Shown here in pieces: positions 1 to 43,312 of a stretch of 64,000 nt of DNA. Positions within the stretch are counted from its first letter, which is position 1. Each line of letters starts with the position of its first letter. The notes below the pieces were generated by a model. It was not told where the DNA came from. It searched no databases and saw only the letters and a list, made by a program, of their open reading frames with translations. The translations under genes were made by a program, and so were the position numbers. Where the stretch lies: IMG/VR virus record IMGVR_UViG_3300028920_000028, one strand, 5' to 3'. This DNA comes from an uncultured virus (IMG/VR IMGVR_UViG_3300028920_000028). Its lineage: Duplodnaviria; Heunggongvirae; Uroviricota; Caudoviricetes.

Positions 1-11664
<11,664 letters not shown>

Positions 11665-25789: not shown

Positions 25790-25818
25790 TTGACCTCCCC
25801 GGCAGGATATACTATATT
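25790..25818 (+). promoter_or_regulatory. Sigma70-like promoter
   Basis: TTGACC-N17-TATATT upstream of 25906. Confidence 0.7.
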
Positions 25819-26608: not shown

Positions 26609-27331
26609 ATGGCATACCAACTGCAAAAGACCACGGGGGCGGAGCTCAACGGGGTTAAGGCCTCCGATGCCCTGGGGATGTACTTCGACCGAAAAATATC
26701 GTGGGTGGAGCTGGCCATGGTGATGGACGCTTTGGGGCCGAGCCCCGAGACGGATCCCGGGCTGGCCCTGGACGAGCCGAAGCGGAGGCGCATACGGAGG
26801 ATGATGCAGGCCTACCGCCTCCTGAAGGGCAAAAGGCCCGACTACATCGAGGGCGCGCTCAAGAAGGCCGGGACGTGGGTCCCGAACCCCGAGGCCCTCA
26901 ACTACCTGCTCGTGCTGTACCGCGAGAACAAGGAGGAGCCGAAGGCGAGAAACGCGCTCCTTCTGGACACCATCGACAAGGTCATTTCCGGCAAGATCAT
27001 CGAGAAGCAGATACGCATACTCGTGCGGAAGCAGCGGAGCGGCGCCCGCGGGGCCGCGTCCGCCAGCGTCGAGCGCGACGGCACGGACCGCAAGCAGGCG
27101 GTGGTGACGCCGGACAGCAAAAACCAGGGGGACCCGAAGTCGGTGGCGGCGGCGGAGTCGGCCTTGAAGTCGCTGAACTTCATCCTGGACACCGCGCTGG
27201 AGCGGAACTCGTACCGCAACCTCCGCGCCGTCCTGGGCGCGGAGTGCCGAGCGATGAGCACCAGGCTCAGCTGCATAGCCGACGAGGAGTTCCTCAAGAT
27301 GTGGAGGAAGCGAAAGGTGGTCGACCTATGA
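26609..27331 (+). CDS. Basic helical hypothetical protein (240 aa), possibly nucleic-acid binding
   Basis: ORF track; first gene after the promoter; ATGA overlap with the ATPase gene. Confidence 0.8.
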   Translation: MAYQLQKTTGAELNGVKASDALGMYFDRKISWVELAMVMDALGPSPETDPGLALDEPKRRRIRRMMQAYRLLKGKRPDYIEGALKKAGTWVPNPEALNYLLVLYRENKEEPKARNALLLDTIDKVISGKIIEKQIRILVRKQRSGARGAASASVERDGTDRKQAVVTPDSKNQGDPKSVAAAESALKSLNFILDTALERNSYRNLRAVLGAECRAMSTRLSCIADEEFLKMWRKRKVVDL

Positions 27332-29205
27332 CCGACAGGTTCGAGTGGAGCTTCGGCTCAAATGCGGGCATGCTCCTGGCCCACGTCAGCGAGTACGAGC
27401 CGGAGCGCGGCCTGTACGAGCTGTCGAAGAACGCCGAGGAGGCCGGGGCCAAGAAGATACGCATCGAGTTCGACTACGACGGCCGCCGCATAGTCATCGG
27501 CGACGACGGCGACGGCATGGGCGCCGACGAACTGGGCCGCATGAGCCAGAACATCGGAAAGTCCTCGAAGGACATGAAGCACTACGGCGTCGGCATGATG
27601 TCGTTCTTCCGCGTCGGCACGCGCATCGTCATCTTCTCCAAGCGCAAGGGCGACAAGAGGCCGTGCGTGCTCTCGTGCGCGATCGCGAACGACTCCATAG
27701 TGTCGGACACCGGCGGCCCCCGGGAGGCGACCGACGCGGACATGGCGGAGCACCCCGTGCAGACGGGCAAGCTGACGCACGGCGCGAAGCACGGCACGAT
27801 AATGATCGTCGAGGGTGTCGGCAGGAACAAGGCGAGCCGGTACGACTTCACGTTCGACATGCGGGAGGTCTTCGAGAAGAAGCGGTTCGAGGGCTACTTC
27901 CGGCGCGAGGCGGACTACAAGCTGGCCACGTACAGCTACTACATCAAGTACGGCCAGGACAAGCCCAAGAAGCTCACGGCGAAGCTCGGATCCGGCAAGC
28001 ACATAAAGATAAGGTTCCCGGACAAGGACCACCCGTGCATCCGTGGGGGCGAGCCGATCAACGTGTTCTGCATCGACTCCGACACCTACGAGATCCGCGT
28101 CGAGATCGACCTGTGGGCGAGCGCGTCGCAGCGCGGGGCCATCCACGTCTCCGAGGACAAGCAGAACGTCCTCGAGATGAAGGACGCCATGAGGCACTCC
28201 ACGCGGCTGTCGTACAAGTCCTCGATATTCCTGGGCCACCCGATGGCCAAGTACCTGCGCGGCCTGGTCGACGTGCATGTCAAGCCCCTCAACGGCGCGC
28301 CCGAGAAGTCGATATGGTCCGGCAGCCGGATGCAGCTGAACATGAGCGGGCCGTTCGGGGCCGCGCTCGCGAACATGCTGAACCACATCGACGTCGAGTT
28401 CCTCCGGGACGTCGTGCAGGACTACGTCTCCGACAAGCTCAGCATGAAGGACGAGAGGCGCTCCAGGGAGATACAGGAGGACATGGAGGCCATGGTCAAG
28501 AGCCACCCCGTCTTCTTCGAGAGCCTGGTGTCGATGCAGTCGGTGGACGAGGTCCACCCGCACAGGGTCAAGTGCCGGGGCTGCGGCCTGTCGGCGACCC
28601 CGTCCAGGGGCCTGCCGCCGAGCGGCCAGATGTCCAACGAGTGCATCTACTACATGCCCGAGGCCCGGACGTACTACTGCGGGAACTGCGGCACGACGTG
28701 GAAGCGCGCCGTCAGGCCGATGCCCGCCAGCAAGGGCAGGTCGCCGACGTACAGGCAGCCCAAGCCCGGCACCGGGACGTCGCGGCGGAAGAGGCACGGC
28801 TTCGGGTTCACGTTCAGCGTGCGGCCGTTCGAGTCGCGCGACGAGCGCCGCACCCGGGTGGACGGCACGACGATAGAGATCAACTCCATCCACGAGTCGT
28901 ACAAGGCCCTGGCCTCGATGAAGGGGTCGGTGGCCGGCCGCCTGCTCAAGGTGTACGAGCGGCAGCAGGCCCTGCAGGCGATAGTCGAGCACGAGGCCGA
29001 CAACCTCACGCGAGACCAGATCATATCGAAGCTGCGCGACGGGGACTCGATGGTCCTCACGTGGTACAACCCGGACAAGACGCAGGGGAGCCCTGCGGAC
29101 ACGCTTTCCGGCGGCGCCGAGCCCGGCAAAGGGGCCGCGGCGACCGGGCCGTCGGTTGTCGAACCTACAGCTGCGGACCTCAAGGCCGCATGGGAGGGCA
29201 GATGA
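27328..29205 (+). CDS. GHKL (HATPase_c, MORC/Hsp90-like) ATPase with a zinc ribbon (625 aa)
   Basis: LYELSKNAEEAGA (motif I), DDGDGM (II), IGKSSK..HYGVGMMS (III), HGTIMIVEG (IV); CRGC...CGNC. Confidence 0.85.
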   Translation: MTDRFEWSFGSNAGMLLAHVSEYEPERGLYELSKNAEEAGAKKIRIEFDYDGRRIVIGDDGDGMGADELGRMSQNIGKSSKDMKHYGVGMMSFFRVGTRIVIFSKRKGDKRPCVLSCAIANDSIVSDTGGPREATDADMAEHPVQTGKLTHGAKHGTIMIVEGVGRNKASRYDFTFDMREVFEKKRFEGYFRREADYKLATYSYYIKYGQDKPKKLTAKLGSGKHIKIRFPDKDHPCIRGGEPINVFCIDSDTYEIRVEIDLWASASQRGAIHVSEDKQNVLEMKDAMRHSTRLSYKSSIFLGHPMAKYLRGLVDVHVKPLNGAPEKSIWSGSRMQLNMSGPFGAALANMLNHIDVEFLRDVVQDYVSDKLSMKDERRSREIQEDMEAMVKSHPVFFESLVSMQSVDEVHPHRVKCRGCGLSATPSRGLPPSGQMSNECIYYMPEARTYYCGNCGTTWKRAVRPMPASKGRSPTYRQPKPGTGTSRRKRHGFGFTFSVRPFESRDERRTRVDGTTIEINSIHESYKALASMKGSVAGRLLKVYERQQALQAIVEHEADNLTRDQIISKLRDGDSMVLTWYNPDKTQGSPADTLSGGAEPGKGAAATGPSVVEPTAADLKAAWEGR

Positions 29206-30947: not shown

Positions 30948-31002
30948 TTCCTGTATCGGATCATCTTTCACAGCCATCCAAATACCAACGGAGGAGGAAG
31001 GC

Positions 31003-31263
31003 ATGCCCGGAAGAGACCAGACGGGGCCGAACGGCCAGGGACCGCTGACAGGCAGGGGATTCGGTGACTGCAACGAGGTGCTGAGGTCCGTCGGCCGCAC
31101 CCTCGGGGGCGGTTTCGGAGCAGGCTTCGGCCGCGGCTTCGGCGGCGCCTTCGGACGCGGGCGCGGGTTCGGGCCCGGCGGCCGCGGGCAGCGCAACGTC
31201 TACCGCCAGACGGGGCTGACCGGCTGGCAGCGCGGCGTCCGCAGGGGGCCGACCGACAGCTAG
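31003..31263 (+). CDS. DUF5320-family Gly/Arg-rich protein (86 aa)
   Basis: MPGRDQTGPNGQGPLTGRGFGDC N-terminus, GFGRGRGFG repeats, YRQTGLTGWQR; GGAGGAGG ribosome-binding site. Confidence 0.8.
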   Translation: MPGRDQTGPNGQGPLTGRGFGDCNEVLRSVGRTLGGGFGAGFGRGFGGAFGRGRGFGPGGRGQRNVYRQTGLTGWQRGVRRGPTDS

Positions 31264-31288
31264 GGACACGCGCGCATCGGGGTCACGA

Positions 31289-31324
31289 GGGGGGCCGCCG
31301 GCATCGGCGGCCCCCCTTCCTTTT
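31289..31324 (+). terminator. Intrinsic terminator after the DUF5320 gene
   Basis: GGGGGGCCGCCG-GCAT-CGGCGGCCCCCC followed by TTCCTTTT. Confidence 0.8.
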
Positions 31325-31331
31325 GCCCGGC

Positions 31332-31361
31332 GTTACGGCACGGGGGTGAAAAAAGTATATT
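31332..31361 (+). promoter_or_regulatory. Early-type promoter
   Basis: GTTACG-N18-TATATT with AAAAAAG before the -10. Confidence 0.55.
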
Positions 31362-31380
31362 ATGGGACGGAGGGAGTCAC

Positions 31381-31593
31381 ATGAACGGCAAACGCGCGAG
31401 GGACAGGGTGGAGGACGCGGTCGACAGCTTTATCGCCGAGCGGCTCGAGAGGGCGTGCCTAGCGGTGCCGGATCCGGTCGCGCATCGGGTGGACCACAGG
31501 GTCGCGCGGAGGATAGAGCGCAGGAGGCGCTTCGTACCATATTATCTCGGAGGCGATTCCATCGAATGGTCTTCGACGCTGGATCTGTTCTAG
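31381..31593 (+). CDS. Small Arg-rich hypothetical protein (70 aa)
   Basis: ORF track; GGAGGGAG ribosome-binding site; C-terminus resembles the next gene. Confidence 0.65.
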   Translation: MNGKRARDRVEDAVDSFIAERLERACLAVPDPVAHRVDHRVARRIERRRRFVPYYLGGDSIEWSSTLDLF

Positions 31594-31601
31594 GGGGCGG
31601 C

Positions 31602-32012
31602 ATGGCCTCGTACACACGGCGCATCACGCGGTGCATCGACGACCGGGTGAACGATCTCGTCATGAAGATGGGCACCCGCATCACGGCGGACACGGCCCAC
31701 ACCGACCACGTCCGGGTGTGGGCCTCGCGCGAAACGGACAGGATAAGCGCCTTCCCACGAGCCGGCATCAGGAGTAGGCTGCGCGCGCTTCCGGCCGCAC
31801 GGGTCGGGGTGGCCGTCGGGCGCGCGATGTGCAACGGTCTGACGCTCGGCGTGTGCAGTCGCGCCCGGGAGGCGACCGACATGCACAGGGGGGTGCTCTC
31901 GAGCGGAGTGTGGCTGCGCATCGGCCCGAAACTCCGGACCAGGGTGCCCTACAGATACTACGGCGCGACCATCAACTGGGTGTCCTCCGACGACGCGACC
32001 CCGCTGCCATGA
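31602..32012 (+). CDS. Arg-rich hypothetical protein (136 aa), partial paralog of 31381-31593
   Basis: RTRVPYRYYGATINWVSS versus RRFVPYYLGGDSIEWSS. Confidence 0.6.
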   Translation: MASYTRRITRCIDDRVNDLVMKMGTRITADTAHTDHVRVWASRETDRISAFPRAGIRSRLRALPAARVGVAVGRAMCNGLTLGVCSRAREATDMHRGVLSSGVWLRIGPKLRTRVPYRYYGATINWVSSDDATPLP

Positions 32013-32296
32013 GCGACCACACGAGTCACGCCCCTCCCAATATCGCCCGACATCCTCCAAGGGTGCGCAGATACGTGAAGCTGGCCGTCTGCGAGATGGT
32101 CTTCGGCGGCTTGAACAAGAGCGCCAGGGGCGCCTTCGGCGATGCCGCCGTAACGGCCATCAACGACAGATTCAGCGAGAGGCGGCTCCTGCAGGACAAC
32201 TTCTCCAGGGTCGCCGGGGCGCTGCGGGGCAGAGTCCTGTCCCGGGCGCGGGGCCGCTCGCTACCCCACAACCCGTCGAAGCCGGGTTTCGTGTAG
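32009..32296 (+). CDS. Hypothetical protein (95 aa)
   Basis: MSDHTSHAPPNIARHPPRVRRYVKL...; ATGA overlap. Confidence 0.5.
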   Translation: MSDHTSHAPPNIARHPPRVRRYVKLAVCEMVFGGLNKSARGAFGDAAVTAINDRFSERRLLQDNFSRVAGALRGRVLSRARGRSLPHNPSKPGFV

Positions 32297-32335
32297 GGTA
32301 ACACCCATCCCGATCATGCCCACTTTCATCATTAC

Positions 32336-32480
32336 AGTGTCATGATAGTGTCATGATTTTGTGCGTACACTGTACGTACAGCCTAACCATCGATGTTTCA
32401 ATCCCTTGCACATTTTGATGTCAAGAAATGTGCGTACGGGCGCCGTACAATGTTCGACGCTTCATGATCTTACATCAAAT
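32336..32480. repeat. AT-rich non-coding block with direct and inverted repeats
   Basis: AGTGTCATGAT x2 in tandem (32336-32357); TGTGCGTAC at 32360 and 32429; TGTACGTACA palindrome; inverted pair TTTGATGTCAAGA (32414-32426) / TCTTACATCAAA (32468-32479). Confidence 0.75.
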
Positions 32481-32485
32481 TTCAC

Positions 32486-32514
32486 TTTACAGCCAAACCC
32501 CATAAAGGTATATT
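32486..32514 (+). promoter_or_regulatory. Sigma70-like early promoter
   Basis: TTTACA-N17-TATATT. Confidence 0.7.
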
Positions 32515-32596
32515 AACGATGCGCGCACGAGTCGTACAACCGCGAAGCCCGCAGGCTCCGCGACACCACAAAACGCGTCGAGGAAGGAGTGTAGAG

Positions 32597-33208
32597 GTGC
32601 TGCGATTCCAATACAAGACCGACAACGTTTTCAACGAAGTCCTCGAGCGGGCCCTCGGGGAGACCATCGACTCCATCAAGGAGTCGCTCAGATACGAGTC
32701 CGACGGGGATGACAGGTTCGACCTCATCCAGCACATCTGGGAGGACGATATCAAGAGGGCCTTCGGCACGCCGGAGTTCCTCCTGCACGTCCTGGAGGCC
32801 CTGCTCGAGGCCCACCAGAGCAAGGATCTGTACATGCCGACAGATTGGCACTTCCTGCTTCTGGATCGGATACTGCACTCGTGGTGCGACTGCTACGGCG
32901 ACATGGCCGGCGAGGCCGACAACGACTTCCTGTTGAGGGACGACGACGGCGACCCCATCATGGAGGTCAAATTCAGGGATGTCGTGGAAACCTTCTTCTG
33001 GGACACCGACTACGACTTCCCGGCCGATCTCGCCGCGCAACTGCGGGGAACCGTGGTGCAGGAGCAGTCCGACGTGAGCGACGTCGCGCTGAACGCGTCC
33101 ATGCGGAAGTCCGTGGACTTGGAGGACGTCAACCTGGTGCCGTGGCGGGACGGGGACGACCGGGGGGAAGCCGGCTGCTGGTGGAAGGAGGAGTTGGAGG
33201 AGGCGTAG
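32597..33208 (+). CDS. Highly acidic hypothetical protein (~203 aa)
   Basis: AAGGAG ribosome-binding site, then GTG; hand count gives about 50 D+E versus about 19 K+R. Confidence 0.8.
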   Translation: MLRFQYKTDNVFNEVLERALGETIDSIKESLRYESDGDDRFDLIQHIWEDDIKRAFGTPEFLLHVLEALLEAHQSKDLYMPTDWHFLLLDRILHSWCDCYGDMAGEADNDFLLRDDDGDPIMEVKFRDVVETFFWDTDYDFPADLAAQLRGTVVQEQSDVSDVALNASMRKSVDLEDVNLVPWRDGDDRGEAGCWWKEELEEA

Positions 33209-33212
33209 TGTA

Positions 33213-33244
33213 GCCGCGCCCGTTCAAGGCGCGTGAGTTGAAAC
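33213..33244 (+). CRISPR. Solitary type I-C-like CRISPR repeat unit (candidate RNA anti-CRISPR); not an array
   Basis: GCCGCGCCCGTTCAAGGCGCGTGAGTTGAAAC, 32 nt, with a CGCGCC/GGCGCG stem and an 11-nt tail; matches the I-C layout GTCGCGCCC-N5-GGGCGCGTGGATTGAAAC. Confidence 0.7.
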
Positions 33245-33307
33245 AGGCAGGCGTCAGTTATGAGGCCGTGGCCCGCCACGGAAACACCAAACAACTCCCG
33301 ATGTACC

Positions 33308-33339
33308 GCCCCCACCGGTCGCTGACGATCGGTGGGGGC
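33308..33339. terminator. Strong hairpin between convergent transcription units
   Basis: GCCCCCACCGGTCG-CTGA-CGATCGGTGGGGGC; no clear U tract. Confidence 0.5.
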
Positions 33340-33340
33340 C

Positions 33341-33520
33341 TCATCGAAGCGTGATGACCGTCCTCTCGGATCCCGGCTCCACGTGCATGTCGACGGCCTG
33401 CCCCCAGTGCAGGGGGCCGCGGCCGTACACGGGCGTCACCGTGCGCGTCTGGCTGATCTCGACGTTTTCGTGGGTTCGGTTGTACAGGACCCTGCCGCCC
33501 CGGACGACCAGCACCGTCAC
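33341..33520 (-). CDS. Hypothetical protein (59 aa)
   Basis: Manual translation MTVLVVRGGRVLYNRTHENVEISQTRTVTPVYGRGPLHW...ITLR; GTG overlaps the upstream stop. Confidence 0.5.
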   Translation of the reverse strand: MTVLVVRGGRVLYNRTHENVEISQTRTVTPVYGRGPLHWGQAVDMHVEPGSERTVITLR

Positions 33521-33831
33521 GGGCTCCTCGACGGGGGCAACGGCACATCGGGTAGATCAAGGTCGTGATGTAGAATGCGCGTGAGTTCCCTTCTGTTGGC
33601 TGGGATCATGAGGTAGTTCTCGAAAATCTGCCTTTCAGTCTGCTTGAAGTCCTCCTTCTTGATGAAGAATACTTCGCCGCACCCGAAGCATCTGTATCCT
33701 ACCAGTTCCCTCGCGGGGTTGTCATACGGTTCTATCTGCCTGTTATTGCAAGAGTGGTTCCGTATGGCCCATAGCCACTCATCCGCATCGAGATAATGGG
33801 CGCCCATCGTCTGCCTATCCTCCGCCGCCAT
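33517..33831 (-). CDS. Small putative Zn-binding protein (104 aa)
   Basis: HSC...CFGC; AAGGGG ribosome-binding site. Confidence 0.7.
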   Translation of the reverse strand: MAAEDRQTMGAHYLDADEWLWAIRNHSCNNRQIEPYDNPARELVGYRCFGCGEVFFIKKEDFKQTERQIFENYLMIPANRRELTRILHHDLDLPDVPLPPSRSP

Positions 33832-33885
33832 GTCGATCCCCTTGTTGAGGGCTTCTGTGTGAATATACTATCTTAGAGTCGGTCG

Positions 33886-33917
33886 TCCGCGCCCGAAAAC
33901 GGTGCGCGGGTTGAAAC
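33886..33917 (+). CRISPR. Second solitary type I-C-like repeat unit
   Basis: TCCGCGCCCGAAAACGGTGCGCGGGTTGAAAC, 32 nt; shares CCGCGCCCG-N15-TTGAAACA with the unit at 33213; TATACT -10 box at 33864-33869 just upstream. Confidence 0.6.
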
Positions 33918-33941
33918 ACCAGTGAGATGGCCGCACCAGTT

Positions 33942-35276
33942 TCAATGCTCCCAAGCGCGGTAGTTCACTCCCCTCTCCTGCAGCTCCCGTATCAACGGGG
34001 CCGATGAACGGTCGTCGAACGACGGGTCATGCCATTCTACGAGCAGTTCCGAGACGTGGTCGATGGCCCCGCTGTCGAGCAGCCTGCGCACGATGCCGTA
34101 CTCGGCGCCCTCCACGTCCAGCTTCAAGACGATGTGCCTTCCCTTGAAGGACTCCACCACCGCCGCGGCGTCCACGCAGGCGACGCGCAGGGGGTTGTCC
34201 CTGTCCAGCTTCTCCTTCTTCTCGCGGAACAGCGTGCTGCCCGCATCACCCCAGCGATCCACCGCCCGGTAGAAGTCGGATGTCCCGTCGGTCGTCCACA
34301 GGCATTCGGACTTGACGGCGATGTTGTATTGCCTGTTGCGATCCCGCACTGCCTCGAGGTCGGGCAGATGCGCCGTGTCCGGCTCGTAGAAGCACACATC
34401 GCACCCCAAGAGGTCGGGTCGGTTGTTCAGGAACAGACCCACTGACTCGCCCTTGCGTGCGCCGCCGTCGATGAAGACCTTCCCGGCCCCCGGCGCCCGG
34501 CGCTCGCTCACCAACCCCATTTCCGCATACTGCCCCCATCGGTCGCCGACGATTGGCGGGAGGCGGGGATCCAGCCTCCCCAGGAACTCAAAGTAGCGCC
34601 CTCGCCCGAGGATGTCCTCGCCGCGGGACAGGAGCCGCTCTAGGCGCGCCGTGTCCTTCTTCTCGGGTGTGTTGTCCTGTGTCTCCGAGAAACTTTCCAG
34701 CTTGTACCTGATGGCGTCCACGCCGCCCAAGTAGGAGAAATGCCAGCCGGCGCGGGGTATCCACACGTGGTTGGCCCTGTGCCCGCGGAGCCTCTGCAGC
34801 GTGGTCGCGCGCACGGCGCCGATGGTCGAGACGAGCGTCCCCCTCCAGGTGTAGGGCGACATGCAGTTGAGGTAGTAGTAGAACAGAAGCTGGTCCAAGG
34901 CCACCGTGCCGTACTTTTCGGATTGCTCACACGCGTAGGGCAGCGAGTGGGGGTTGGGGATCTCGTCGACGTCCGACATCACCACGTACCTGGGGTTGAT
35001 GTCCTCCGCGGCCCTCTGGAGCGCGTCGCGGGCGGAGAACTCCCTCTCCCATGGGTTGTCGGTCGCCAGGAGTTCCGGGATTTTGCGGTACACGATCTTC
35101 TCGTGGTACGGCTTGAACCTGCCCCAGTTGGCCTCCAGGTTGAAAGGTTTGGGGTTGCCCGTGAAGGTATATGCCGACTCCACGATGACGAAGGCATCCA
35201 CGTGCGGGGCCAGCATCGCCAGGCGCATCTGCAATAGATCCAACTCATTCAGGAACAGGAAGCAGTCGGCTATCAT
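33942..35276 (-). CDS. GT17-like (beta-1,4-GlcNAc transferase) glycosyltransferase fused to an FkbM-family methyltransferase
   Basis: DCFLFLNELDLL, VESAYTFTGNPKP, MSDVDEIP, AGWHFSYLGG; then FIDGGARKG, LKLDVEGAEY, LLVEWH. Confidence 0.9.
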   Translation of the reverse strand: MIADCFLFLNELDLLQMRLAMLAPHVDAFVIVESAYTFTGNPKPFNLEANWGRFKPYHEKIVYRKIPELLATDNPWEREFSARDALQRAAEDINPRYVVMSDVDEIPNPHSLPYACEQSEKYGTVALDQLLFYYYLNCMSPYTWRGTLVSTIGAVRATTLQRLRGHRANHVWIPRAGWHFSYLGGVDAIRYKLESFSETQDNTPEKKDTARLERLLSRGEDILGRGRYFEFLGRLDPRLPPIVGDRWGQYAEMGLVSERRAPGAGKVFIDGGARKGESVGLFLNNRPDLLGCDVCFYEPDTAHLPDLEAVRDRNRQYNIAVKSECLWTTDGTSDFYRAVDRWGDAGSTLFREKKEKLDRDNPLRVACVDAAAVVESFKGRHIVLKLDVEGAEYGIVRRLLDSGAIDHVSELLVEWHDPSFDDRSSAPLIRELQERGVNYRAWEH

Positions 35277-35479
35277 GGCTTGGTTCGCTTTCTTGACCGA
35301 CCTTGCCCCCGCGCTGGTTTCGGGTTGCTTTCCTCTTCATCGGGCGCGGAGAGGGGAATCCCACGCTTTGCCCCCTTGTAGCCCCCTCTCCAAGCGCAGG
35401 CCAAGACGGGCTTTGCGCCCCACAGCGTGGGCGGGATGACGGTGCGGGGCCACTCCTTGAAGGTCATGGCGCGCCTCAA
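35273..35479 (-). CDS. Hypothetical protein (68 aa)
   Basis: Fills the gap between neighbours with 4-nt overlaps on both sides. Confidence 0.45.
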   Translation of the reverse strand: MRRAMTFKEWPRTVIPPTLWGAKPVLACAWRGGYKGAKRGIPLSAPDEEESNPKPARGQGRSRKRTKP

Positions 35480-36189
35480 TACGGGTGCAGGCTGTAGAGG
35501 TAGTCGCTCGCGGCCTGCGCCCGCTCCCGCTCCAGACGCTCGTAGGCTTCCAATATGAGCGGCATCGCCTTCTGGGACAGATGGACGCCGTCCCTGAGAT
35601 ACTCCCCCTTTGACGTCATGTCCAAGTTCACGAGCTCACGAAACACCGACAGGACGACGCCCTTCGGGAAATGGTGCCTCAGGCGCGCTGTGAAGGCCTC
35701 TGTGGCCTCGTTGCGCTCCCGGGTGGTTCCCAGGTGGGGGTAGGGGTTCTCCTCGCTCACACGGGCCTCCGGGTCGTCGTGGTTGCACGTGGGGGGCGGG
35801 GCGAACAGCATGACGTCCCTGCCGGAGTCCATGAGGTTGCCGGCGAACCCGGCGTACCTGTCTGCGGCCTCGCCGGCGACATCCCCGATGATGCGGCCCT
35901 GGGCCTTCGCCTGCTTCACCAGGTGGACGCGGCAGTCGATCTCCCCGAACGAGAGCATGATCCGGTCCTCCTTGGGCAGCCCTTGGACTATGGACATCAC
36001 CTTCGAAACGACCTCGTGCGCCGGGTTGCCGAAGCTGTAGGCCAGGTATCCGCCGATGCGATAGGTCCGGAACGGGGGAAGCGAGTCTTGGGGGCAGGGG
36101 TGTCCGCTGGACACGATGTCTTTCCCCGTGAACACGCTCACATGGCTGTCGCCTATGCAGTGTGCTGTAATATCATCTACTGTTTTCAT
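35476..36189 (-). CDS. SGNH/GDSL-family hydrolase or acyltransferase
   Basis: IGDSH, FGEIDCRVHL, DGVHL. Confidence 0.8.
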   Translation of the reverse strand: MKTVDDITAHCIGDSHVSVFTGKDIVSSGHPCPQDSLPPFRTYRIGGYLAYSFGNPAHEVVSKVMSIVQGLPKEDRIMLSFGEIDCRVHLVKQAKAQGRIIGDVAGEAADRYAGFAGNLMDSGRDVMLFAPPPTCNHDDPEARVSEENPYPHLGTTRERNEATEAFTARLRHHFPKGVVLSVFRELVNLDMTSKGEYLRDGVHLSQKAMPLILEAYERLERERAQAASDYLYSLHPY

Positions 36190-36287
36190 AAGAGGCCTTG
36201 TCTTGCGAATACCTGTACGATACCCCCGACTTTCAAAAAACCCAAAAATCATACACGTATAGGTCGTGTCCTACGCTTGCGAGATAA

Positions 36288-36902
36288 TCACCTTCTGGAC
36301 AGAAGATTCCACTTATTGTTCAACTCACGAAAATCGTATTCATCGTAGAACTCAAAATCGCGTGCGTTTCGAACTTTTGTAGGTTCCTTATTCAAAGAGT
36401 CATGTATTAGGTCATAGTCTATAGACTCTTCTGAAGAAACAAAGCGTATAATACTAATTATGTATTTAATCCTGTTTGTACCAACTATGTCGCTGTATCT
36501 CACTTTAAGGTTTTTTGATTCAGGTAGGATCCACTTGTCCATAAACCCTAACCAATAAGGCGCTTTTTCCTTTAGAAAGTTCTTCCAAGATTCCAAGTTG
36601 TGACTAATCTGTCCTTTGGACACAAGGAAACTATAATACGATGTCAAGCACCCCTCGGGGTTTCGGTATTGAATAATATGACTCCAACCTTTTATGCACT
36701 TATATTTTAATCCAAAATCATGATTCTTCTGGACATTAGTACTTGATTCTATACACGGGACTCTTTGACAGTGTCCATAAAATTCACAGTAGTGCATAGA
36801 ACTTTCAAAGTAATAGTTCAATATTCTCATCAAATAGTGATGACCGCTACGTGGAAACGTAACGACTTGAGTTCTATTTAAGCTTTTCACAGTTTTGGTC
36901 AT
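36288..36902 (-). CDS. Sulfotransferase-like protein
   Basis: TFPRSGHHYL (PSB loop), KNHD, QYRNP..LTSYY, VRYSDI. Confidence 0.75.
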   Translation of the reverse strand: MTKTVKSLNRTQVVTFPRSGHHYLMRILNYYFESSMHYCEFYGHCQRVPCIESSTNVQKNHDFGLKYKCIKGWSHIIQYRNPEGCLTSYYSFLVSKGQISHNLESWKNFLKEKAPYWLGFMDKWILPESKNLKVRYSDIVGTNRIKYIISIIRFVSSEESIDYDLIHDSLNKEPTKVRNARDFEFYDEYDFRELNNKWNLLSRR

Positions 36903-38053
36903 CTTATAACCTGTGTATCGTATCGATCTGCCAGACTTGGGTTTCTAATAATCTCTTCGTACAAAACGCTACCTGGCATAGCTATATACTTACTAACATT
37001 AACTCTATCTAATTTAAGTTGTGATATTAAGGTGTTAGTGGCAATACGGTCTTCCTCCTCCTCGTATGGTGTTTCCGTTAGAAAGCTACCATACACCTTG
37101 ATACCTTCGGATTTACAGGTTCTAACGAACCTATGTATCTGGTCTACTGTTATATCCTTCTTGTATCGTTTTAAGAGCTTTGGACTACCCGTTTCTATAC
37201 CAACATACAAAGAAACACACCCCGCTCTTTTCATAAGGCTAATCTGGTTATTTGTTAGATCGACTCTGGATTCACATTTCCATGAAAACTCCAAACCCCT
37301 ACTCAAAACTTCTTCACAGAAAGATACTAGTCGCTGTTTACTTGCAGTAAAATTGTCCTCTCTAAAATATATTCCTTTAGAGTTGTGGTCTGAGATTAAG
37401 TATCCTATATCGTCTAACACTCTTTCCACCGAATGATATGTCCATCTCCGACCATAGATCCCTCTCGTACTACAAAACTCGCATCTGTTCGGACATCCCC
37501 TACTTGATGAATACGTGTATACGTTTTTCACCGAGGGGCACTCCTCTATAGTTCGATTATACTTAGGAGCCGAAAACAGTTCATAAGGAACTCTAGGCAG
37601 GTCGTCCAAGTTCTCTATGCGCCCGGCTACTATGACCCTATCTCGTAGGCTTTCATCAAGTATGCCCCGCAACACATACTCTCCCTCACCGCGAACAACA
37701 TGGTCAAAATATCGGAGGAGGGTATCAGGTAAGATTGTGGGATGCGCACCACCCGCGATTAGCTTGCCCTTAAATCCTTGGCTACGTATTTCCCTCGCAA
37801 GAATTGAAGCTTCTTCATAGCAGGCTGAATTAACCTGTATACCAATCGCCTCGACACCCCCCAAAGAGGGCAGCTTATCGCCTGCGTAGATATCACATAT
37901 GGACGGTTGAAACCCACAAGACCGAAGATACCCCGCTATGTACCCAAGTCCCAACGGTGCTCGGATGTCTCCCAGATGAAAACCGTATTTAGGACTTGTC
38001 GGCATCGGGGGAGTAAGTAGAAGGATCCTGGGGCTACTCTTGAAGCCGGACAT
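36899..38053 (-). CDS. B12-binding radical SAM protein (class B methyltransferase-like)
   Basis: PLGLGYIAGYL, AGGAHPT, VRGEGE, SSRGCPNRCEFC, EDNF, GIETGS. Confidence 0.9.
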   Translation of the reverse strand: MSGFKSSPRILLLTPPMPTSPKYGFHLGDIRAPLGLGYIAGYLRSCGFQPSICDIYAGDKLPSLGGVEAIGIQVNSACYEEASILAREIRSQGFKGKLIAGGAHPTILPDTLLRYFDHVVRGEGEYVLRGILDESLRDRVIVAGRIENLDDLPRVPYELFSAPKYNRTIEECPSVKNVYTYSSSRGCPNRCEFCSTRGIYGRRWTYHSVERVLDDIGYLISDHNSKGIYFREDNFTASKQRLVSFCEEVLSRGLEFSWKCESRVDLTNNQISLMKRAGCVSLYVGIETGSPKLLKRYKKDITVDQIHRFVRTCKSEGIKVYGSFLTETPYEEEEDRIATNTLISQLKLDRVNVSKYIAMPGSVLYEEIIRNPSLADRYDTQVIR

Positions 38054-38795
38054 ACAGCCTACTTTCTTTCATCTTCTTTTTCTTGTACTCTATTTGCTCT
38101 TGTGTGTTATAGGAGAATCGTACGGAGTTAGAAACCGCCGGCTCATAGTTGCTCTTTACAAGTTTCAAAAAATCTTGACTATCGCAAGCATCGCACAGAC
38201 TGCCAAGTTTGTTAAACCCGGCTCTGCAGCAGCGCATAGTGTAGTCTACATGACCGTAACCGCACCACCCGAACTCTGTAGTATCAAAATATCCTACTGT
38301 ATCAATTACTCTCTTTGTAAACGTCCAAAAGGCCCCTTGTATGTGGTTGTCATCTGAATTATACTTTTGAAGTAGCCCTTTTGGCTCTTTTACGACTTGT
38401 AGTTTTACGTCGTCATACCAATTTGGATCCATAAATACTAGATGGTCATACCCCGACAAACGAACGGCCAATTCGTATTTTGAATCCCACCCTTTTTTGA
38501 TAAATACTACATCATCATCGCATTTGAAACCTATATCAAATTCGTATTCACAAGACTTTTGGAGAATAGTGTTTGTCTGCCGATGGATACCTACACGGTC
38601 ATTTTTGATGAGTACAACATCAACACCACTAAACTGTAAACTCTCCAAAAATTCTATTGTGCCGTCTGTAGATCCATCATCAGCAACCACCAAGATCCAA
38701 TTAGAACTTTTGTCCCTAGTGCTGTTCCAGCTTTTCAGCAGATTGGACAAATAAACCCTTCTATTATATGTGGTTACTCCAATAAAATAAGTCAT
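38034..38795 (-). CDS. Glycosyltransferase family 2
   Basis: GVTTYNR, VADDGSTDGT, KCDDDV, GYGHVDYTMR. Confidence 0.9.
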   Translation of the reverse strand: MTYFIGVTTYNRRVYLSNLLKSWNSTRDKSSNWILVVADDGSTDGTIEFLESLQFSGVDVVLIKNDRVGIHRQTNTILQKSCEYEFDIGFKCDDDVVFIKKGWDSKYELAVRLSGYDHLVFMDPNWYDDVKLQVVKEPKGLLQKYNSDDNHIQGAFWTFTKRVIDTVGYFDTTEFGWCGYGHVDYTMRCCRAGFNKLGSLCDACDSQDFLKLVKSNYEPAVSNSVRFSYNTQEQIEYKKKKMKESRLYVRLQE

Positions 38796-39601
38796 AACGT
38801 GAAAGATCCTACAAGTAGATCGTTGTCCTTGGCAAATCTGCTGATCGTGTCGTTTGACGACGCCGCAAACTCAGGAGTGTACCCACGGTTGAATTTCTGG
38901 GATTCGGGGTGGCCCCCAAACCAATGAACAGCATATGAAGTGTCGGGTATCTGGAACTCACCGGAGTGAATCCGGACTACATCATCAGAACTTGAGATGG
39001 GATAGAACGCCTCATTCTCCGTCCTGTATACCTTCTCTTTGGATTTCTGATCCACGAATTTGGAACACCGTTCATTGAGATAGATGAAGAACTGCGGGCC
39101 AATGCAACAGTAGTCGTTCGCGTCAAAATGGGTGTCAATTTCAGAAAAGGCGATTTCAGGCAAAAGAGATTCCTTTGACGCGCCCAATACCCCCACATAC
39201 GGCATCGAACGACATCCGTACACAAAATCATAACCTCCCAGGTCATCGAACGGCCGGCATACGATTTGGTCGACATCCAAATACCAGCCGCCGCCGCGGA
39301 GAACATCCCATCGGAAGAAATCAGAAACGAAGTTGGGGGCGACTCTTTTCCCGTTGGAATAAGACCGTATTTCGATGCCCAGGCCATCCCACTCCGATGA
39401 GAAATCGGACACATCATCCTTGGACATGAAATCTTGACGGTCACGGGTGCTCCAAGTGCGAAAGCCCTCCTGCTTTTCGCTTTTGTATAGCACCATCTTC
39501 CATCCAGGGTGGAATTTACGAAACGAACGTAGGGTGAGAAGCCTTAAGAAAGAGAACGGTGTTCCGTCACCCCAAAAGAAATAAGCAATCTTGGGTATCA
39601 T
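38792..39601 (-). CDS. GT32-like (DXD sugar-binding) glycosyltransferase
   Basis: MIPKIAYFFWG, SDFFRW, GGWYLDVD, IGPQ, YAVHWFGG. Confidence 0.85.
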   Translation of the reverse strand: MIPKIAYFFWGDGTPFSFLRLLTLRSFRKFHPGWKMVLYKSEKQEGFRTWSTRDRQDFMSKDDVSDFSSEWDGLGIEIRSYSNGKRVAPNFVSDFFRWDVLRGGGWYLDVDQIVCRPFDDLGGYDFVYGCRSMPYVGVLGASKESLLPEIAFSEIDTHFDANDYCCIGPQFFIYLNERCSKFVDQKSKEKVYRTENEAFYPISSSDDVVRIHSGEFQIPDTSYAVHWFGGHPESQKFNRGYTPEFAASSNDTISRFAKDNDLLVGSFTL

Positions 39602-40299
39602 GTCAGCCTTTCGACCTCGGGGGGGATTTCTCCACGGCGATATTCTCCAACATATCTGCCCAAAATCGATGCATCGCCGTCATGGGTGACGGCCCTCTTC
39701 GCGGTGTCCAATTCGATGACCTGAATTTCCGGACATGAGCGAATTCCCTTCTTGAAGATCCATGCGCGTTCCGTCATGTCCCTGTCGGCGTAGTAATATT
39801 GGTAGGCGCTGCTGTACATTCCTATGTCACGGAACACGCTCTTTCGATAGACCCCGAAGTTCATGCAGTAATCTGGACCGACGTAGGCTATCCACTGCTG
39901 ATTTGAGGTCCTCCATTTGTTTAGATCTTTTGCGTCCTGTACGTTGCCCCTAGCCCAATGGAATATGAATACATCATAGGGTTCGTCGAGGATCTCGAAC
40001 ACTTTGCCCCAAGGTGTCGCCATGAGAACATCGTCATTCCATTGGCAGACGTTTTCAAACGATGACGCACGGATTCCTGCGTTCATGAAATGCGGATAGG
40101 GACTCCGACGGCCGATTTCAATGACCTTGAGCCTGTCGCAGGATCGTTCCCGCAGATATTCCAAAGTGCCGTCCGTCGAACCGCCGTCGACCAAAACGAG
40201 TTCGATGCGGTTGTGCGCCTCTATCGTGTTACCGAGAACGAGCGGCAGCAGACCCCTCCTGTTCAACGTCCCGGTCACTATGCTGAGTCCGCTACTCAT
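39598..40299 (-). CDS. Glycosyltransferase family 2
   Basis: SIVTGTLNR, VDGGSTDGT, WNDDV, YYADRD. Confidence 0.9.
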   Translation of the reverse strand: MSSGLSIVTGTLNRRGLLPLVLGNTIEAHNRIELVLVDGGSTDGTLEYLRERSCDRLKVIEIGRRSPYPHFMNAGIRASSFENVCQWNDDVLMATPWGKVFEILDEPYDVFIFHWARGNVQDAKDLNKWRTSNQQWIAYVGPDYCMNFGVYRKSVFRDIGMYSSAYQYYYADRDMTERAWIFKKGIRSCPEIQVIELDTAKRAVTHDGDASILGRYVGEYRRGEIPPEVERLT

Positions 40300-40925
40300 A
40301 ACTTGCTACTCTCGTCGTAACCAAATTCCTTAAGATCCTCTTCAAAGTATCCTCGTAGGAATTCAATGTCAGCGAGCGTGACGAGCTTCCTGGCTTCCTT
40401 CGGCCGCGGCGATTTGATATGACGCCCATGTATATGTGTTTCCCGGTCGTACTCCGAAAAGTCTTTGAATAACGAAGCCCTTCTCATGTTTGACTCAAGG
40501 GATGACTGCAACCTAACGGATTTCGTTTGAGTTTCACAAAAAGAAACCTTGAAGTACATCGAGTAGTTTCTAAATAGATAATCGTAATCGTTGTAAAACA
40601 ATGAGTAGTTAAGCATTAAACACTTTCCTGTGTCACGATATCTTTTGACGTCGCCCACGTTCTTCTTGATCCATTTGGCTGCCTTTTTTATATCAACCGA
40701 AGTAATCTTGGAATTGGTATCGATTCTCGCTTGGCTTATGGTCGCATCGATGAAGTTTCGATAGCTACATACACAAAGGCTATAATCTACTCCCTCCAAG
40801 AAACCCTGCACTTTCCTTACCCTCGCCGATGGAAAAAGCCACTTCAGCGTTTGGTAAATTAGAGTACTGCCGCTACGCGGGAGGCCTGCCGAAACCAGAT
40901 CTTTGCCGGATAGGTCATTACTCAC
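40296..40925 (-). CDS. Sulfotransferase-like protein
   Basis: AGLPRSGSTLIYQ, SYRNFIDATIS, LKEFGY. Confidence 0.75.
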   Translation of the reverse strand: MSNDLSGKDLVSAGLPRSGSTLIYQTLKWLFPSARVRKVQGFLEGVDYSLCVCSYRNFIDATISQARIDTNSKITSVDIKKAAKWIKKNVGDVKRYRDTGKCLMLNYSLFYNDYDYLFRNYSMYFKVSFCETQTKSVRLQSSLESNMRRASLFKDFSEYDRETHIHGRHIKSPRPKEARKLVTLADIEFLRGYFEEDLKEFGYDESSKL

Positions 40926-42490
40926 AGCTTACCCATATCTTTCACAAAAAGCTTGTCCTCCACCACGACGGCATCTATTTGCGTATCACGTAAAACGTCA
41001 AGCGCCTCCTTAACCGTATTGAGGATAGGCTTTCCTTTGATGTTGAAAGAGGTGTTCAACAAAACCCTTTTGCCTGTCAAACGATTAAACTCCCCCAATA
41101 GGTCATAGAAGTACTTGTGACTCTCCCTTGTGACCGTCTGTATCCGTGCGGTACCGTCGCAGTGCGTAACGGCACCCAATGATGTTCTCCACTCCTCACG
41201 CACAGGGGCCGCGAACGACATAAACGGGGAATCCCCGTCGAACTCGAAGTACTTACCGCAGTCCTCTTTGCGAACAAACGGGGCGAACGGCCTGAACCAT
41301 TCCCTGTACTTCACTCTCGCGTTGAGCGTGTCCTTCATATCCGGAATGCCGGGATCGCATACAATGCTCCTGTTACCAAGGGCCCGCGGGCCGCACTCGG
41401 CCCTTCCACGCGCTATTCCCACTATCTTCCCTGCGGCAATCAACTCCGCGACAGTTCCGATATCCGCCTCCCTTGCCCCCCGTGCGGTCGCCTGCGCCGA
41501 TAGATCACCCAAATCGAAAAGGTTGGGGCCAAGGTACGCAGGGATCTCTCTTCTTTTTGGGGGATTCTTCAGCAAGAGCATGCCGAGGGAAAGGCCGCAA
41601 TCGTTCGGACTGGGGGGCACGTAAACGGGCACCCCATGTTTCAGTCGTATCTTTTCGTTTGTCAGCACATTCAAGGCGCACCCACCAGCGAGACATATGG
41701 GCAACCCTCGATGTTTCTCGATGATCGGGTCGATTGATTCGAACACCGCCCCCTCGAACGTGCTTTGCGTGGTGGCCGCAACGTCATACGAGATCTTACC
41801 CTCGAGCGCATCGACATGGAAGTCGAACCCCGCCTTTTTTCCCAGATTTTGTAGCATCCGCTTGTCCTGCCCGTTGCTTCGAAAGAACCCGGCCAAATGC
41901 GCCTCCAAGTCAAAAAGCGGATCACCGTAGGCGCAGAGGCCCATTAGCTTACCCGGCATGGACAGACCGCTTCCGGATTTCCTTATCTCAGAGAGGGGCC
42001 ATCCCATGCATAAGTAGGCCGTTCCAAGGTCATAGGGAAACGAGGCCAGCTTTTCTATCTTGGTGCCGCAGGCGTGGAACACGTTGAAGAAGGAGATGCC
42101 CACAAGATCGTCGCCGCCCCCATCGTAGGATATGACAAGCGCCTCCTCGAACGGGCTTGTGAAGAAAGAAGACGCGGCATGCGCGGAATGGTGTGGCACG
42201 TCCTGGAACTCACGCACACCAAATATCTCCGACACCAGGCCTTGCTTCGCCTGCGGAAGTTGATTCGTGTAGCACACATCAAACTTGATCTCGCCGAACT
42301 CCGAGATCAAGCAATCTCTTATTTTGCCCAAAACATTCGCGCAACCGGGATTCTCCTCGAATTGCTTCCAAAGAAAATCGTACCGATTTCCCGTAATCCT
42401 CTCAACCTCGAATGTTCTGTACGTATCACCAATACGGAAGGACAACGACGCATCGTGTGACGTGTATGCAGCCATGCTGTTGTTTGCCAT
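40922..42490 (-). CDS. O-carbamoyltransferase (NodU/CmcH family)
   Basis: HDAS, HHSAHAASSF, YDGGGD, GKLMGL, AGGCALN, GPRALGNRSI, REWFRPFAP, HCDGTARIQTV, LLNTSFN. Confidence 0.95.
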   Translation of the reverse strand: MANNSMAAYTSHDASLSFRIGDTYRTFEVERITGNRYDFLWKQFEENPGCANVLGKIRDCLISEFGEIKFDVCYTNQLPQAKQGLVSEIFGVREFQDVPHHSAHAASSFFTSPFEEALVISYDGGGDDLVGISFFNVFHACGTKIEKLASFPYDLGTAYLCMGWPLSEIRKSGSGLSMPGKLMGLCAYGDPLFDLEAHLAGFFRSNGQDKRMLQNLGKKAGFDFHVDALEGKISYDVAATTQSTFEGAVFESIDPIIEKHRGLPICLAGGCALNVLTNEKIRLKHGVPVYVPPSPNDCGLSLGMLLLKNPPKRREIPAYLGPNLFDLGDLSAQATARGAREADIGTVAELIAAGKIVGIARGRAECGPRALGNRSIVCDPGIPDMKDTLNARVKYREWFRPFAPFVRKEDCGKYFEFDGDSPFMSFAAPVREEWRTSLGAVTHCDGTARIQTVTRESHKYFYDLLGEFNRLTGKRVLLNTSFNIKGKPILNTVKEALDVLRDTQIDAVVVEDKLFVKDMGKL

Positions 42491-42499
42491 GCGTCCTTC

Positions 42500-43312
42500 C
42501 TAAAAGAAGCGTCTGAAGCACGAACGCCAAAGATGCTTTTCAAATGAAACGTATTCCAAGGCGGCCTCGAAATTCCTTTTGACAGCCGGTAATCTGCGCT
42601 CGTAGTCCTCCTCCCCAAGCGAGCCGATAGCAGCGTCCAAGCCATCGAGCGACTCGAACAGGATCATTCCGTCCGGGTCGAAGAACTCGTGCGCTTTCGG
42701 GAATCCCCAATAGATCGGTACGGTGCCGGTGAGAAAACAGTCCATGATCTTCTCGCTGAAGTACGAATTTACCGCACAGTTCTCGATGGCAATGCTGTAT
42801 CGGTAGTAGGCCAGGCCGTCAATCTTTTTAGCTATAGGCTTGTATCCGCGCCCGAATAACCCCTCTATCCGATCCTTGAACCTGTCAGCGACGACATGTC
42901 GTAGCCTCTGACCATGCGTGAACCGCTTGTCTGATGCTATCATCGACAGGTTCTTCATCTTAATGTTCACCCCCCTGTAACCCTCGTCTATCCATGTCGT
43001 ACCGTATGGATAGTACACGAAATTTTCGGTGCCGGCGAGCCTCTCATCGAACGTGCAGACAAAGTCAAACGCATCGTGGTGCTGCTCCACAAATCTGTAT
43101 ATTTGGGGGTCTACGACGACCGGCTCAAACAGTACGGCCACCTTATGTTCACTACCGCTGCTCAGCGCCTCTGAAAGGAACCGATCCGTGAAAACTGTTA
43201 GATAGCTGTCGCGTGGCTGCCTGTCCCACACCCACTCAAACCACGAACACGGCCTCTCGGGAAATCTTTCGCTGAAAAAATTCAAGTCTCGTATATGAAT
43301 TTGATTCATCAT
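42500..43312 (-). CDS. GT10 (fucosyltransferase-like) glycosyltransferase
   Basis: YRYSIAIENCAVNSYFSEKIMDCFLTGTVPIYWG. Confidence 0.9.
   Translation of the reverse strand: MMNQIHIRDLNFFSERFPERPCSWFEWVWDRQPRDSYLTVFTDRFLSEALSSGSEHKVAVLFEPVVVDPQIYRFVEQHHDAFDFVCTFDERLAGTENFVYYPYGTTWIDEGYRGVNIKMKNLSMIASDKRFTHGQRLRHVVADRFKDRIEGLFGRGYKPIAKKIDGLAYYRYSIAIENCAVNSYFSEKIMDCFLTGTVPIYWGFPKAHEFFDPDGMILFESLDGLDAAIGSLGEEDYERRLPAVKRNFEAALEYVSFEKHLWRSCFRRFF

Follow-up and report, generated by a model that had tools for sequence, protein, structure and literature searches.

Two short elements resembling type I-C CRISPR repeats were located in a compact region of the 64-kb window (the whole stretch of DNA that was analysed). 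They are referred to as solitary repeat units 1 and 2 (SRU1 and SRU2), and the region around them carries the gene of an acidic protein, two small overlapping reading frames and a large glycosyltransferase gene. The features of the locus, with the evidence by which each was placed, were as follows:

32395..32426, minus strand: weak candidate for a third unit, an AT-rich hairpin followed by the tail GGGATTGAAAC (model R1, fold).
32486..32514, plus strand: strong promoter-like sequence TTTACA-17-TATATT for the 203-aa gene and SRU1 (10/12 consensus).
32597..33208, plus strand: gene of the acidic 203-aa protein (P0003); SRU1 falls in its 3' untranslated region (database gene call).
33213..33244, plus strand: SRU1, the better-matching solitary type I-C-like repeat unit (model R1, stem pairing, tail).
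33308..33339, no strand assigned: 14-bp GC-rich hairpin between convergent genes (fold -33.1 kcal/mol, z -5.0).
33341..33520, minus strand: 59-aa ORF, the C-terminal half of an uncharacterised H-C-C-C zinc-binding family (homologues, fusions).
33517..33831, minus strand: 104-aa ORF, the N-terminal half of the same family (homologues, conserved residues).
33842-33889, both strands: AT-rich box with promoter-like sites on either strand (looser promoter scan).
33842..33869, plus strand: promoter-like TTGTTG-16-TATACT upstream of SRU2 (8/12 consensus, looser scan).
33862..33889, minus strand: promoter-like CGGACG-16-TATATT aimed at the 104-aa gene (8/12 consensus).
33886..33917, plus strand: SRU2, a solitary type I-C-like repeat unit (pattern match, model R1, fold).
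33939..33945, minus strand: TTGAAAC, an exact inverted copy of the SRU2 tail (sequence match).
33942..35276, minus strand: 444-aa gene of a glycosyltransferase family 17 and FkbM methyltransferase protein (Pfam PF04724, 1.7e-29, and PF05050).

Both units are intergenic and both lie on the plus strand, as the first-pass annotation of this DNA had stated and as the ORF map agrees. SRU1 starts 4 nt past the stop codon (33208) of the 203-aa gene. SRU2 stands between two minus-strand genes, 24 nt past the stop codon of the 444-aa one and 54 nt ahead of the start codon of the 104-aa one, and the flanking ORFs were recognised as real genes by their codon-position GC. No credible plus-strand ORF was found after SRU2, which had also been noted earlier; the ORFs seen beyond 33917 run antisense within the 444-aa gene.

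The sequence of SRU2 is TCCGCGCCCGAAAACGGTGCGCGGGTTGAAAC. The earlier claim that this element shares a bipartite unit with a copy 673 bp upstream was confirmed by a search with the motif CCGCGCCCG-N13-17-TTGAAAC, which matched at exactly two places in the window (33214-33244 and 33887-33917), in each case on the plus strand and 673 nt apart. When the window was shuffled with its dinucleotide composition preserved, no match of any kind was obtained in 100 shuffles. The candidate third unit at 32395-32426 on the minus strand is weak: it scored 12 bits against model R1 (described below) at a non-significant E of 0.36, the match covered the tail only (32395-32411), and its hairpin of -5.5 kcal/mol was equalled by 10 of 200 shuffles.

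Compared as 32-mers, SRU1 and SRU2 agree in 24 of 32 letters; the differences are at positions 1, 11, 12, 13, 15, 18, 22 and 24. None of the differences falls in the 5' stem arm or in the last 8 nt, and the single difference in the stem turns a G-C pair into a G-U pair, so that pairing is retained. The chance that all eight differences would fall outside those 15 positions is C(17,8)/C(32,8) = 0.002 by our own arithmetic, a post hoc figure, since the shared blocks had drawn attention in the first place. The distribution of the differences favours a constraint acting on the shape of a putative RNA.

The figure of 78% given by the tool refers to the span 33214-33245.

The likeness to type I-C repeats was evaluated with a covariance model (R1) that was built from 18 I-C repeats and searched over the whole window on both strands (128 kb). 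The repeats had been fetched from IMG/VR and genome-contig loci with patterns taken from the window. Because the 3' 17 nt of all R1 sequences were fixed by a search pattern derived from the window's own tails, only the 5' half and the stem of the model count as independent evidence. SRU1 matched R1 with 30.9 bits (E 5e-7) and SRU2 with 21.5 bits (E 4e-4), and these were the only two significant matches in the 64 kb. The next one was the reverse strand of SRU1's own stem (E 0.012); apart from it, the rest of the 64 kb gave nothing below E 0.01. The fetched loci include true arrays of 6 to 28 copies with a period of about 65 to 68 nt. Csd1/Cas8c was present in four of the five genomes with this repeat type, in one of them on the same contig as the array, and this co-occurrence (a tool result) ties the repeat type to subtype I-C. 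No Rfam family reached its gathering score in the window, and at E <=10 on 33100-34050 none lay on either unit.

A type I-C repeat is described as having a 2-nt 5' overhang, a 7-nt stem, a 5-nt loop and an 11-nt 3' overhang (PMC8524198). In this canonical register SRU1 and SRU2 keep both overhangs; each of them pairs six of the seven stem positions and continues into an 11-nt tail ending in GTTGAAAC, the tail being TGAGTTGAAAC in SRU1 and CGGGTTGAAAC in SRU2, where one of the six pairs is G-U. Both units share with the Cas5c substrates described there the length of 32 nt, the GC stem in canonical register, the 11-nt tail and the same orientation rule. They depart from those substrates in having six pairs instead of seven, the 9-15 pair being broken in both, a loop of 7 nt instead of 5 nt, and C at position 2, a place occupied by T in each of the 18 model sequences. 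The trinucleotide that follows the cleavage point is altered in each of them, and no array is present. This trinucleotide, U22-G23-G24, is the reported main determinant for the Cas5c of B. halodurans; positions 22-24 read UGA in SRU1 and CGG in SRU2, against UGG. Each of the two changes occurs in nature, since A at position 24 was seen in two of the 18 model sequences and C at position 22 in one. The minimum-energy fold of SRU2 (-17.2 kcal/mol, z -3.2) adopts a shifted register, in which the tail is 7 nt and positions 22 to 25 are buried.

The best identity to the 18 I-C repeats in hand was 26/32 (81%) for SRU1 and 24/32 (75%) for SRU2. Judged by the R1 scores, the canonical pairs, the 11-nt tail and the array-forming repeat type, both units resemble I-C repeats in predicted structure as well as in sequence, and the earlier description of them as I-C-like was upheld.

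Further, the surroundings of the units were inspected for other repeats. Each unit was aligned locally to the 150 nt on either side of it, on both strands, and the scores obtained (6 to 8) were reached equally well by 70 to 193 of 200 shuffles; as the flanks are at shuffle level, they hide no second repeat. Thus, no repeat or partial repeat was found within 150 nt of SRU1 or SRU2 on either strand, in agreement with the earlier view of the units as solitary. The locus does not form a CRISPR array, which takes at least two repeats with spacers of some 30 to 40 nt: here 641 nt, genes included, separate one unit from the other. Both are intergenic and lack any repeat or partial repeat within 100 bp, as the definition of a solitary unit in PMC10651486 has it. 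A genome scan for units starting with CCGCGCC returned six loci, none of them an array of that form, so no host was identified.

The first-pass annotation had also assigned SRU2 its own promoter, and this assignment stood only in part. The sequence TTGTTG-N16-TATACT is present on the plus strand directly before the unit; it agrees with the consensus at just 8 of 12 positions (3 of 6 in the first hexamer), and the promoter scan made no call there. Sites of 8/12 quality occur in the window at 0.34 per kb per strand, and at 1.6 in stretches of lower GC. The opposite strand holds an equal 8/12 site, CGGACG-16-TATATT, which is correctly positioned for the 104-aa gene and whose TATATT is also the second hexamer of two 10/12 promoters, at 32486-32514 and 25790-25818 (the latter read by eye). 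Since sites of equal quality stand on both strands, the AT-rich box is ambiguous. No terminator-like site was found between SRU2 and 34190. The inverted TTGAAAC sits 21 nt downstream of the SRU2 tail (33918-33938 between them) and overlaps the stop codon of the 444-aa gene; a fold of 33905-33950 pairs it with the SRU2 tail, at z -0.04 no better than shuffles.

The units bracket two small minus-strand ORFs, which had been described earlier as two genes. Both ORFs are indeed present between the units; they proved to be halves of one family, which are fused in relatives. For the 104-aa protein, a search at E <=0.001 yielded 11 distant homologues. Across 12 aligned members of the family H26, C48 and C51 are invariant and C28 is nearly so, which supports the zinc binding predicted for this protein, a point on which the first-pass annotation appears to have been right. 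For the 59-aa protein two homologues were retrieved, 89 and 93 aa long. P0008 (148 aa) and P0009 (160 aa) combine a part like the 104-aa protein and a part like the 59-aa protein in a single protein. In the window the two ORFs lie in different frames and overlap by GTGA at the stop codon of the 104-aa ORF, with AGGAG just upstream, an arrangement that reads as a split, translationally coupled gene or as a frameshift.

It had been suggested that these ORFs are Acr/Aca-like partners, and nothing obtained here spoke for that. Neither ORF gave a Pfam family (E <=0.05), a PADLOC match, an Acr homologue or a helix-turn-helix. The predicted structure of the 104-aa protein (pLDDT 61, low confidence) had its best PDB match at E 0.04 and none at E <=0.001, and the profile of the zinc-binding family found no Pfam or PDB relative. 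At 0.54, the 104-aa gene is poorer in GC than its surroundings (about 0.65). The 14-bp hairpin at 33308-33339 is probably a bidirectional terminator. The 641 bp between the units (33245-33885) hold the elements of a complete transcription unit: the promoter-like box, the coupled genes and the strong hairpin. A reading of 33258-33340 as a fragment of a second glycosyltransferase gene was discarded, since a 33-nt match of 85% and a 19-aa tblastn match (E 0.057) were too weak.

The gene upstream of SRU1 starts with GTG preceded by GGAAGGAG. The encoded protein is very acidic: in its 229-aa ORF form it has a pI of 4.5 and a net charge of -24, and the codon-position GC of the ORF is coding-like (GC3 0.86). 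No known family or fold was found for the 203-aa protein in Pfam or in a PDB fold search (best E 2.5, model pLDDT 70), and the protein atlas search gave nothing usable. Fold, Pfam and PADLOC searches found no likeness to a known Acr, and PADLOC called no system for the region. IMG/VR contained no relative of the 104-aa protein, of the 229-aa protein or of the 203-aa family profile. A metagenome scan with the 229-aa protein yielded four distant loci (29-39% identity by best segment), and an I-C-like unit was found at none of the four. On one of the contigs with a homologue of the 203-aa protein (L117, a distant metagenome contig of 45% GC) the homologue sits downstream of a conserved gene pair, one member of which is a GHKL-type ATPase, and the same pair is present in the window at 26660-29109. 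To judge from the gene order, this neighbourhood argues against a simple Acr reading of the 203-aa protein.

The 104-aa protein is recorded in the protein database on a contig of 463,769 bp, and the replicon, of ~464 kb and from marine sediment, is probably a very large phage. Among sequencing runs, a single one was listed as containing this DNA, a marine sediment metagenome; it is a DNA run, perhaps the source, in which nothing but the source contig was seen, and no RNA run was listed. In the window, one ORF encodes a collagen-like protein of at least 3,888 aa, a 922-aa collagen-like protein matches tail-fibre families, and many glycosyltransferases and radical SAM enzymes are also encoded. 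Further genes are those of Tpt1, a HAD/NUDIX protein, split CoaC and CoaB, dTMP kinase and a lytic transglycosylase. When 39 proteins were scanned against NCBIfam, 21 had no family, and nearly all the other matches lay below, or far below, the curated cut-offs. No tRNA gene was found in the window, no ribosomal-protein family among the proteins scanned, and no capsid, terminase or other hallmark virion or packaging gene in the window. A DNA search of phage GenBank entries with 31000-36500 returned no match. One 467-kb IMG/VR record (G001) shares a 1104-aa protein, one of five proteins tested; it has no match for the 444-aa, 203-aa, 627-aa or 834-aa proteins, and its two matches to R1 (E 0.06 and 0.14) are stemless by eye.

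The closest published parallels are the RNA anti-CRISPRs (Racrs) of Camara-Wilpert et al. 2023 (PMC10651486). That work reports 2,103 solitary repeat units on viral sequences, found by the SRUFinder rule of >=90% identity and coverage to a known repeat, with a database of 17,823 repeats. RacrIC1, an inhibitor of type I-C in that description, is found 11 nt behind an acrIC5 homologue and shares its transcript, which carries two active inhibitors. Like the Racrs, each of our units is a single intergenic unit on what is probably a mobile element, and neither cas genes nor an array lie close to it. SRU1 shares with RacrIC1 the type I-C affiliation and the place directly after the gene of a small acidic protein (4 nt vs 11 nt), and its arrangement of 203-aa gene and 10/12 promoter mirrors the acrIC5-racrIC1 bicistron. 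SRU2 is comparable in standing behind a promoter-like box. Unlike the published SRUs, the units reach 75 to 81% identity instead of 90% or more, here in a comparison with 18 repeats only. Unlike the Racrs presented in that report, they form two diverged copies 673 nt apart, and unlike acrIC5, the protein upstream of SRU1 bears no likeness to a known Acr.

A second parallel is offered by the Cracrs of Liu et al. (bioRxiv 10.1101/2024.10.29.618823), which, like the putative SRU RNAs, are derived from CRISPR repeats, carried by phages and would interact with the Cas proteins of the host. The preprint describes viral crRNA-like RNAs whose targets are cas or toxin promoters, among them type I-C ones. 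The Cracrs presented there are mini-arrays whose spacer partly matches a cas or toxin promoter, whereas the SRUs have no second repeat within 150 nt.

A putative RNA anti-CRISPR or guide function of the units appears plausible. As the best explanation it was tentatively proposed, at somewhat less than even confidence, that SRU1 and SRU2 are solitary repeat-mimic RNAs which engage host type I-C proteins as decoys. According to this proposal, the plus strand across both units would be transcribed: the mRNA of the acidic 203-aa gene would end with SRU1, and the SRU2 RNA would arise from the weak promoter placed back to back with that of the 104-aa gene. If the host carries a type I-C system, its Cas5c would bind the hairpin and the GTTGAAAC tail, Cas7 could load onto the RNA downstream of the unit, and the Cas proteins would be diverted into useless complexes, as by the published Racrs. 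We infer the transcription, the Cas binding, the effect on immunity and the phage nature of the replicon; what is observed is that the units resemble I-C repeats in sequence and structure, that they stand alone between genes, and on which strand they lie. The decoy proposal is supported by the likeness to I-C repeats, the solitary status, the pattern of differences between the units and the published Racr precedent, and also by the viral-looking context, poor in known protein families, with collagen-like and tail-fibre-like proteins, no tRNA gene and, among the proteins scanned, no ribosomal-protein family. It is weakened on the side of SRU2 by the 8/12 promoter with its equal minus-strand site and by the missing terminator, and in general by the divergence from real I-C repeats, below the 90% of the SRU finder. 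The altered trinucleotide and the shifted fold of SRU2 count against it too, as do the lack of a unit at the four distant loci of the 203-aa gene, the genome scan that gave no array of the CCGCGCC form, the absence of a capsid or terminase gene from the window and the single protein shared with the IMG/VR record. Within the decoy proposal SRU1 makes the stronger case and SRU2 the weaker one.

The solitary units may also be explained without any decoy. They might be relics or sites that act at the DNA level, i.e., what remains of a repeat or mini-array that had been captured, or else duplicated flanks or recombination sites belonging to the 641-bp cassette, which fills the space exactly between them. 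The divergence of both units from the repeats in hand agrees with such an origin, and the shared C at position 2 and the broken 9-15 pair point to one origin followed by duplication. The complete transcription unit between the copies and the low GC of the 104-aa gene speak for a cassette as well. However, the differences between the units spare the stem arm and the tail, and the stem change keeps the pairing, which looks like a constraint on RNA shape; flanks produced by integration would begin identical, and the source run (one assembly only) showed neither a variant nor a joint. This origin was considered unlikely. In a special form of it, SRU1 and SRU2 would be the duplicated flanks of a self-contained 641-bp cassette with promoter, split zinc-binding gene and terminator, that is, a repeat, a giant "spacer" and a repeat on a phage genome, with phage-borne CRISPR repeats serving as docking or exchange sites through host adaptation machinery or repeat-directed recombination; this form was regarded as highly improbable. 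Mere chance, with the units as ordinary GC-rich hairpins of a high-GC genome, was rated just as improbable. Such hairpins are common in the window, and a loose form of the bipartite motif was found in 30 IMG/VR contigs, where most matches are stemless by eye. Against this stand the E values of both units over the 128 kb searched, the absence of the motif from all shuffles, and the stem and tail of both units in the register of true arrays. In addition, four of the window's eight TTGAAAC sites fall within 1.55 kb around the locus.

Two further explanations keep an RNA and change its role. Read antisense, the hairpin at 33887-33910 might end or attenuate the 444-aa mRNA, or an antisense-repeat RNA could pair with the repeats of host pre-crRNA. 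SRU2 is flanked on both sides by minus-strand genes, a fold of 33832-33950 (minus strand) places two hairpins directly after the 444-aa stop codon, and the 104-aa gene has a promoter-like site of equal quality, with a TATATT shared by the 10/12 promoters. On the other hand, no T-run follows the hairpin, and the whole fold (z -0.7) does not rise above shuffles. A plain terminator would leave unexplained both the GTTGAAAC tail in I-C register and the twin SRU1, which is sense to its upstream gene, and for the Cas5c of S. mutans it was reported that the complementary strand of its repeat was left uncut (PMC8524198). A minus-strand role was rated quite unlikely. The other explanation, a one-repeat guide, assumes that after Cas5c cleavage the 11-nt tail and the phage sequence following it would load Cascade and target a rival phage or a host promoter, in the manner of the Cracr or crRNA-like RNAs, for which type I-C cases are on record in the preprint cited above. 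A mini-guide with a spacer-like part had been put forward in the first-pass annotation, together with a search of the post-repeat sequence against phages. A search of IMG/VR with the 29 nt that directly follow each unit, in which any base was allowed at every sixth position, gave no match, and the sequence after the units had no match elsewhere in the window. These results, and the lack of a second or degenerate repeat within 150 nt, set against the Cracr mini-arrays, count against a guide, which was rated about as unlikely as the minus-strand role.

The decoy proposal is of a kind already known, the repeat-mimic trick being present in other phages. In principle it offers little that is new, since viral solitary repeats are on record in the thousands and one of type I-C has already been tested. 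From the placement of SRU1 alone, the acidic 203-aa protein becomes a candidate anti-CRISPR. If active, the units would add a high-GC, marine-sediment replicon of this size to the elements that fight type I-C systems by repeat-mimic RNAs, and, with two diverged copies in one genome, the differences between them would map the positions that such a mimic must keep.

Between SRU1 and SRU2, the two solitary type I-C CRISPR-repeat-like units, the 104-aa and 59-aa ORFs (33341-33831, minus strand) were identified by a family alignment as two halves of one protein family. In the relatives P0008 and P0009 both halves were fused into a single protein of 148-160 aa, whereas in the window the two ORFs did not share a frame and overlapped by GTGA. 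Judging from this frame arrangement, the pair represents either a split gene or a frameshift.

The TTGAAAC motif was concentrated around the locus, where 4 of the 8 sites in the window fell inside 1.55 kb. The following two sites were recorded:

32395-32426, minus strand: weak AT-rich hairpin unit headed by a TTGAAAC site, with an I-C-like layout (E 0.36 with a covariance model of 18 type I-C repeats)
33939-33945, minus strand: TTGAAAC, an exact inverted copy of the SRU2 tail, over the stop codon of the 444-aa glycosyltransferase/FkbM gene

The latter was separated from the SRU2 tail by the 21 nt of 33918-33938. A small hairpin (33257-33285, minus strand) lay 12 nt past SRU1; on the opposite strand, it matched Rfam CRISPR-DR16 weakly and without significance (17.7 bits, E 0.56). 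The strong, terminator-like hairpin at 33304-33336 was 85% identical over 33 nt to 34528-34560 within the 444-aa gene.

Upstream of the promoter of the 203-aa gene, which encodes an acidic protein and ends 4 nt before SRU1, AGTGTCATGAT occurred twice as a direct repeat in the region 32335-32380 (plus strand), along with a palindrome around GTACACTGTACGTAC. These elements resemble operator sites. The 203-aa family was linked to a 214-aa protein and a GHKL-type ATPase (36% identity, E 1e-122) both in the window and in L117:

26660-29109 and 32597-33136, plus strand, window: members of the linkage
3875-8661, L117 (a distant metagenome contig of 45% GC): the corresponding linkage

Such a linkage, common to the window and a distant contig, suggests a conserved module, for which no PADLOC system match was obtained.

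Other cargo of the window comprised the following genes:

1-11664, minus strand: collagen-like ORF, 3,888 aa or longer, extending beyond the window edge
11686-14454, minus strand: second collagen-like protein of 922 aa, next after the former
17510-18091 and 18537-19289, plus strand: CoaC-like and CoaB-like genes, two separate, divergent genes

The larger collagen-like ORF was composed of G-x-y repeats and two non-repeat domains. A minus-strand ORF was contained in the gap between the CoaC-like and CoaB-like genes, and such separate genes are unusual cargo in a phage-like replicon. A low-GC island (36000-44000; GC 0.43-0.55 versus ~0.65 elsewhere), made up of genes for glycosyltransferases, B12/radical SAM proteins and carbamoyltransferases, was situated within a long minus-strand sugar-modification block and looks like a recent acquisition.

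Other very large viral contigs each held several I-C-like solitary units or mini-arrays, scattered along the contig and bearing a GTGAGTTGAAAC tail:

L032, L038 and L097: one 329-kb IMG/VR contig
L073 and L078: one 255-kb contig

The I-C tail GGCGCGTGGGTTGAAAC was also present, with no hairpin ahead of it, in a family of ~15-16 kb contigs from one sample (L041-L043, L053, L058 and ~25 more loci), within a conserved sequence located ~0.5-1.7 kb from one contig end. Finally, solitary I-C-like units with a CCGCGCC start were detected in two Candidatus Caccocola assemblies (L109:842-987 and L113:1001-1032), both of which also had Csd1. Given the conserved GCTTATGT-like sequence that followed them, these units may be regulatory RNAs of the host or of a prophage.
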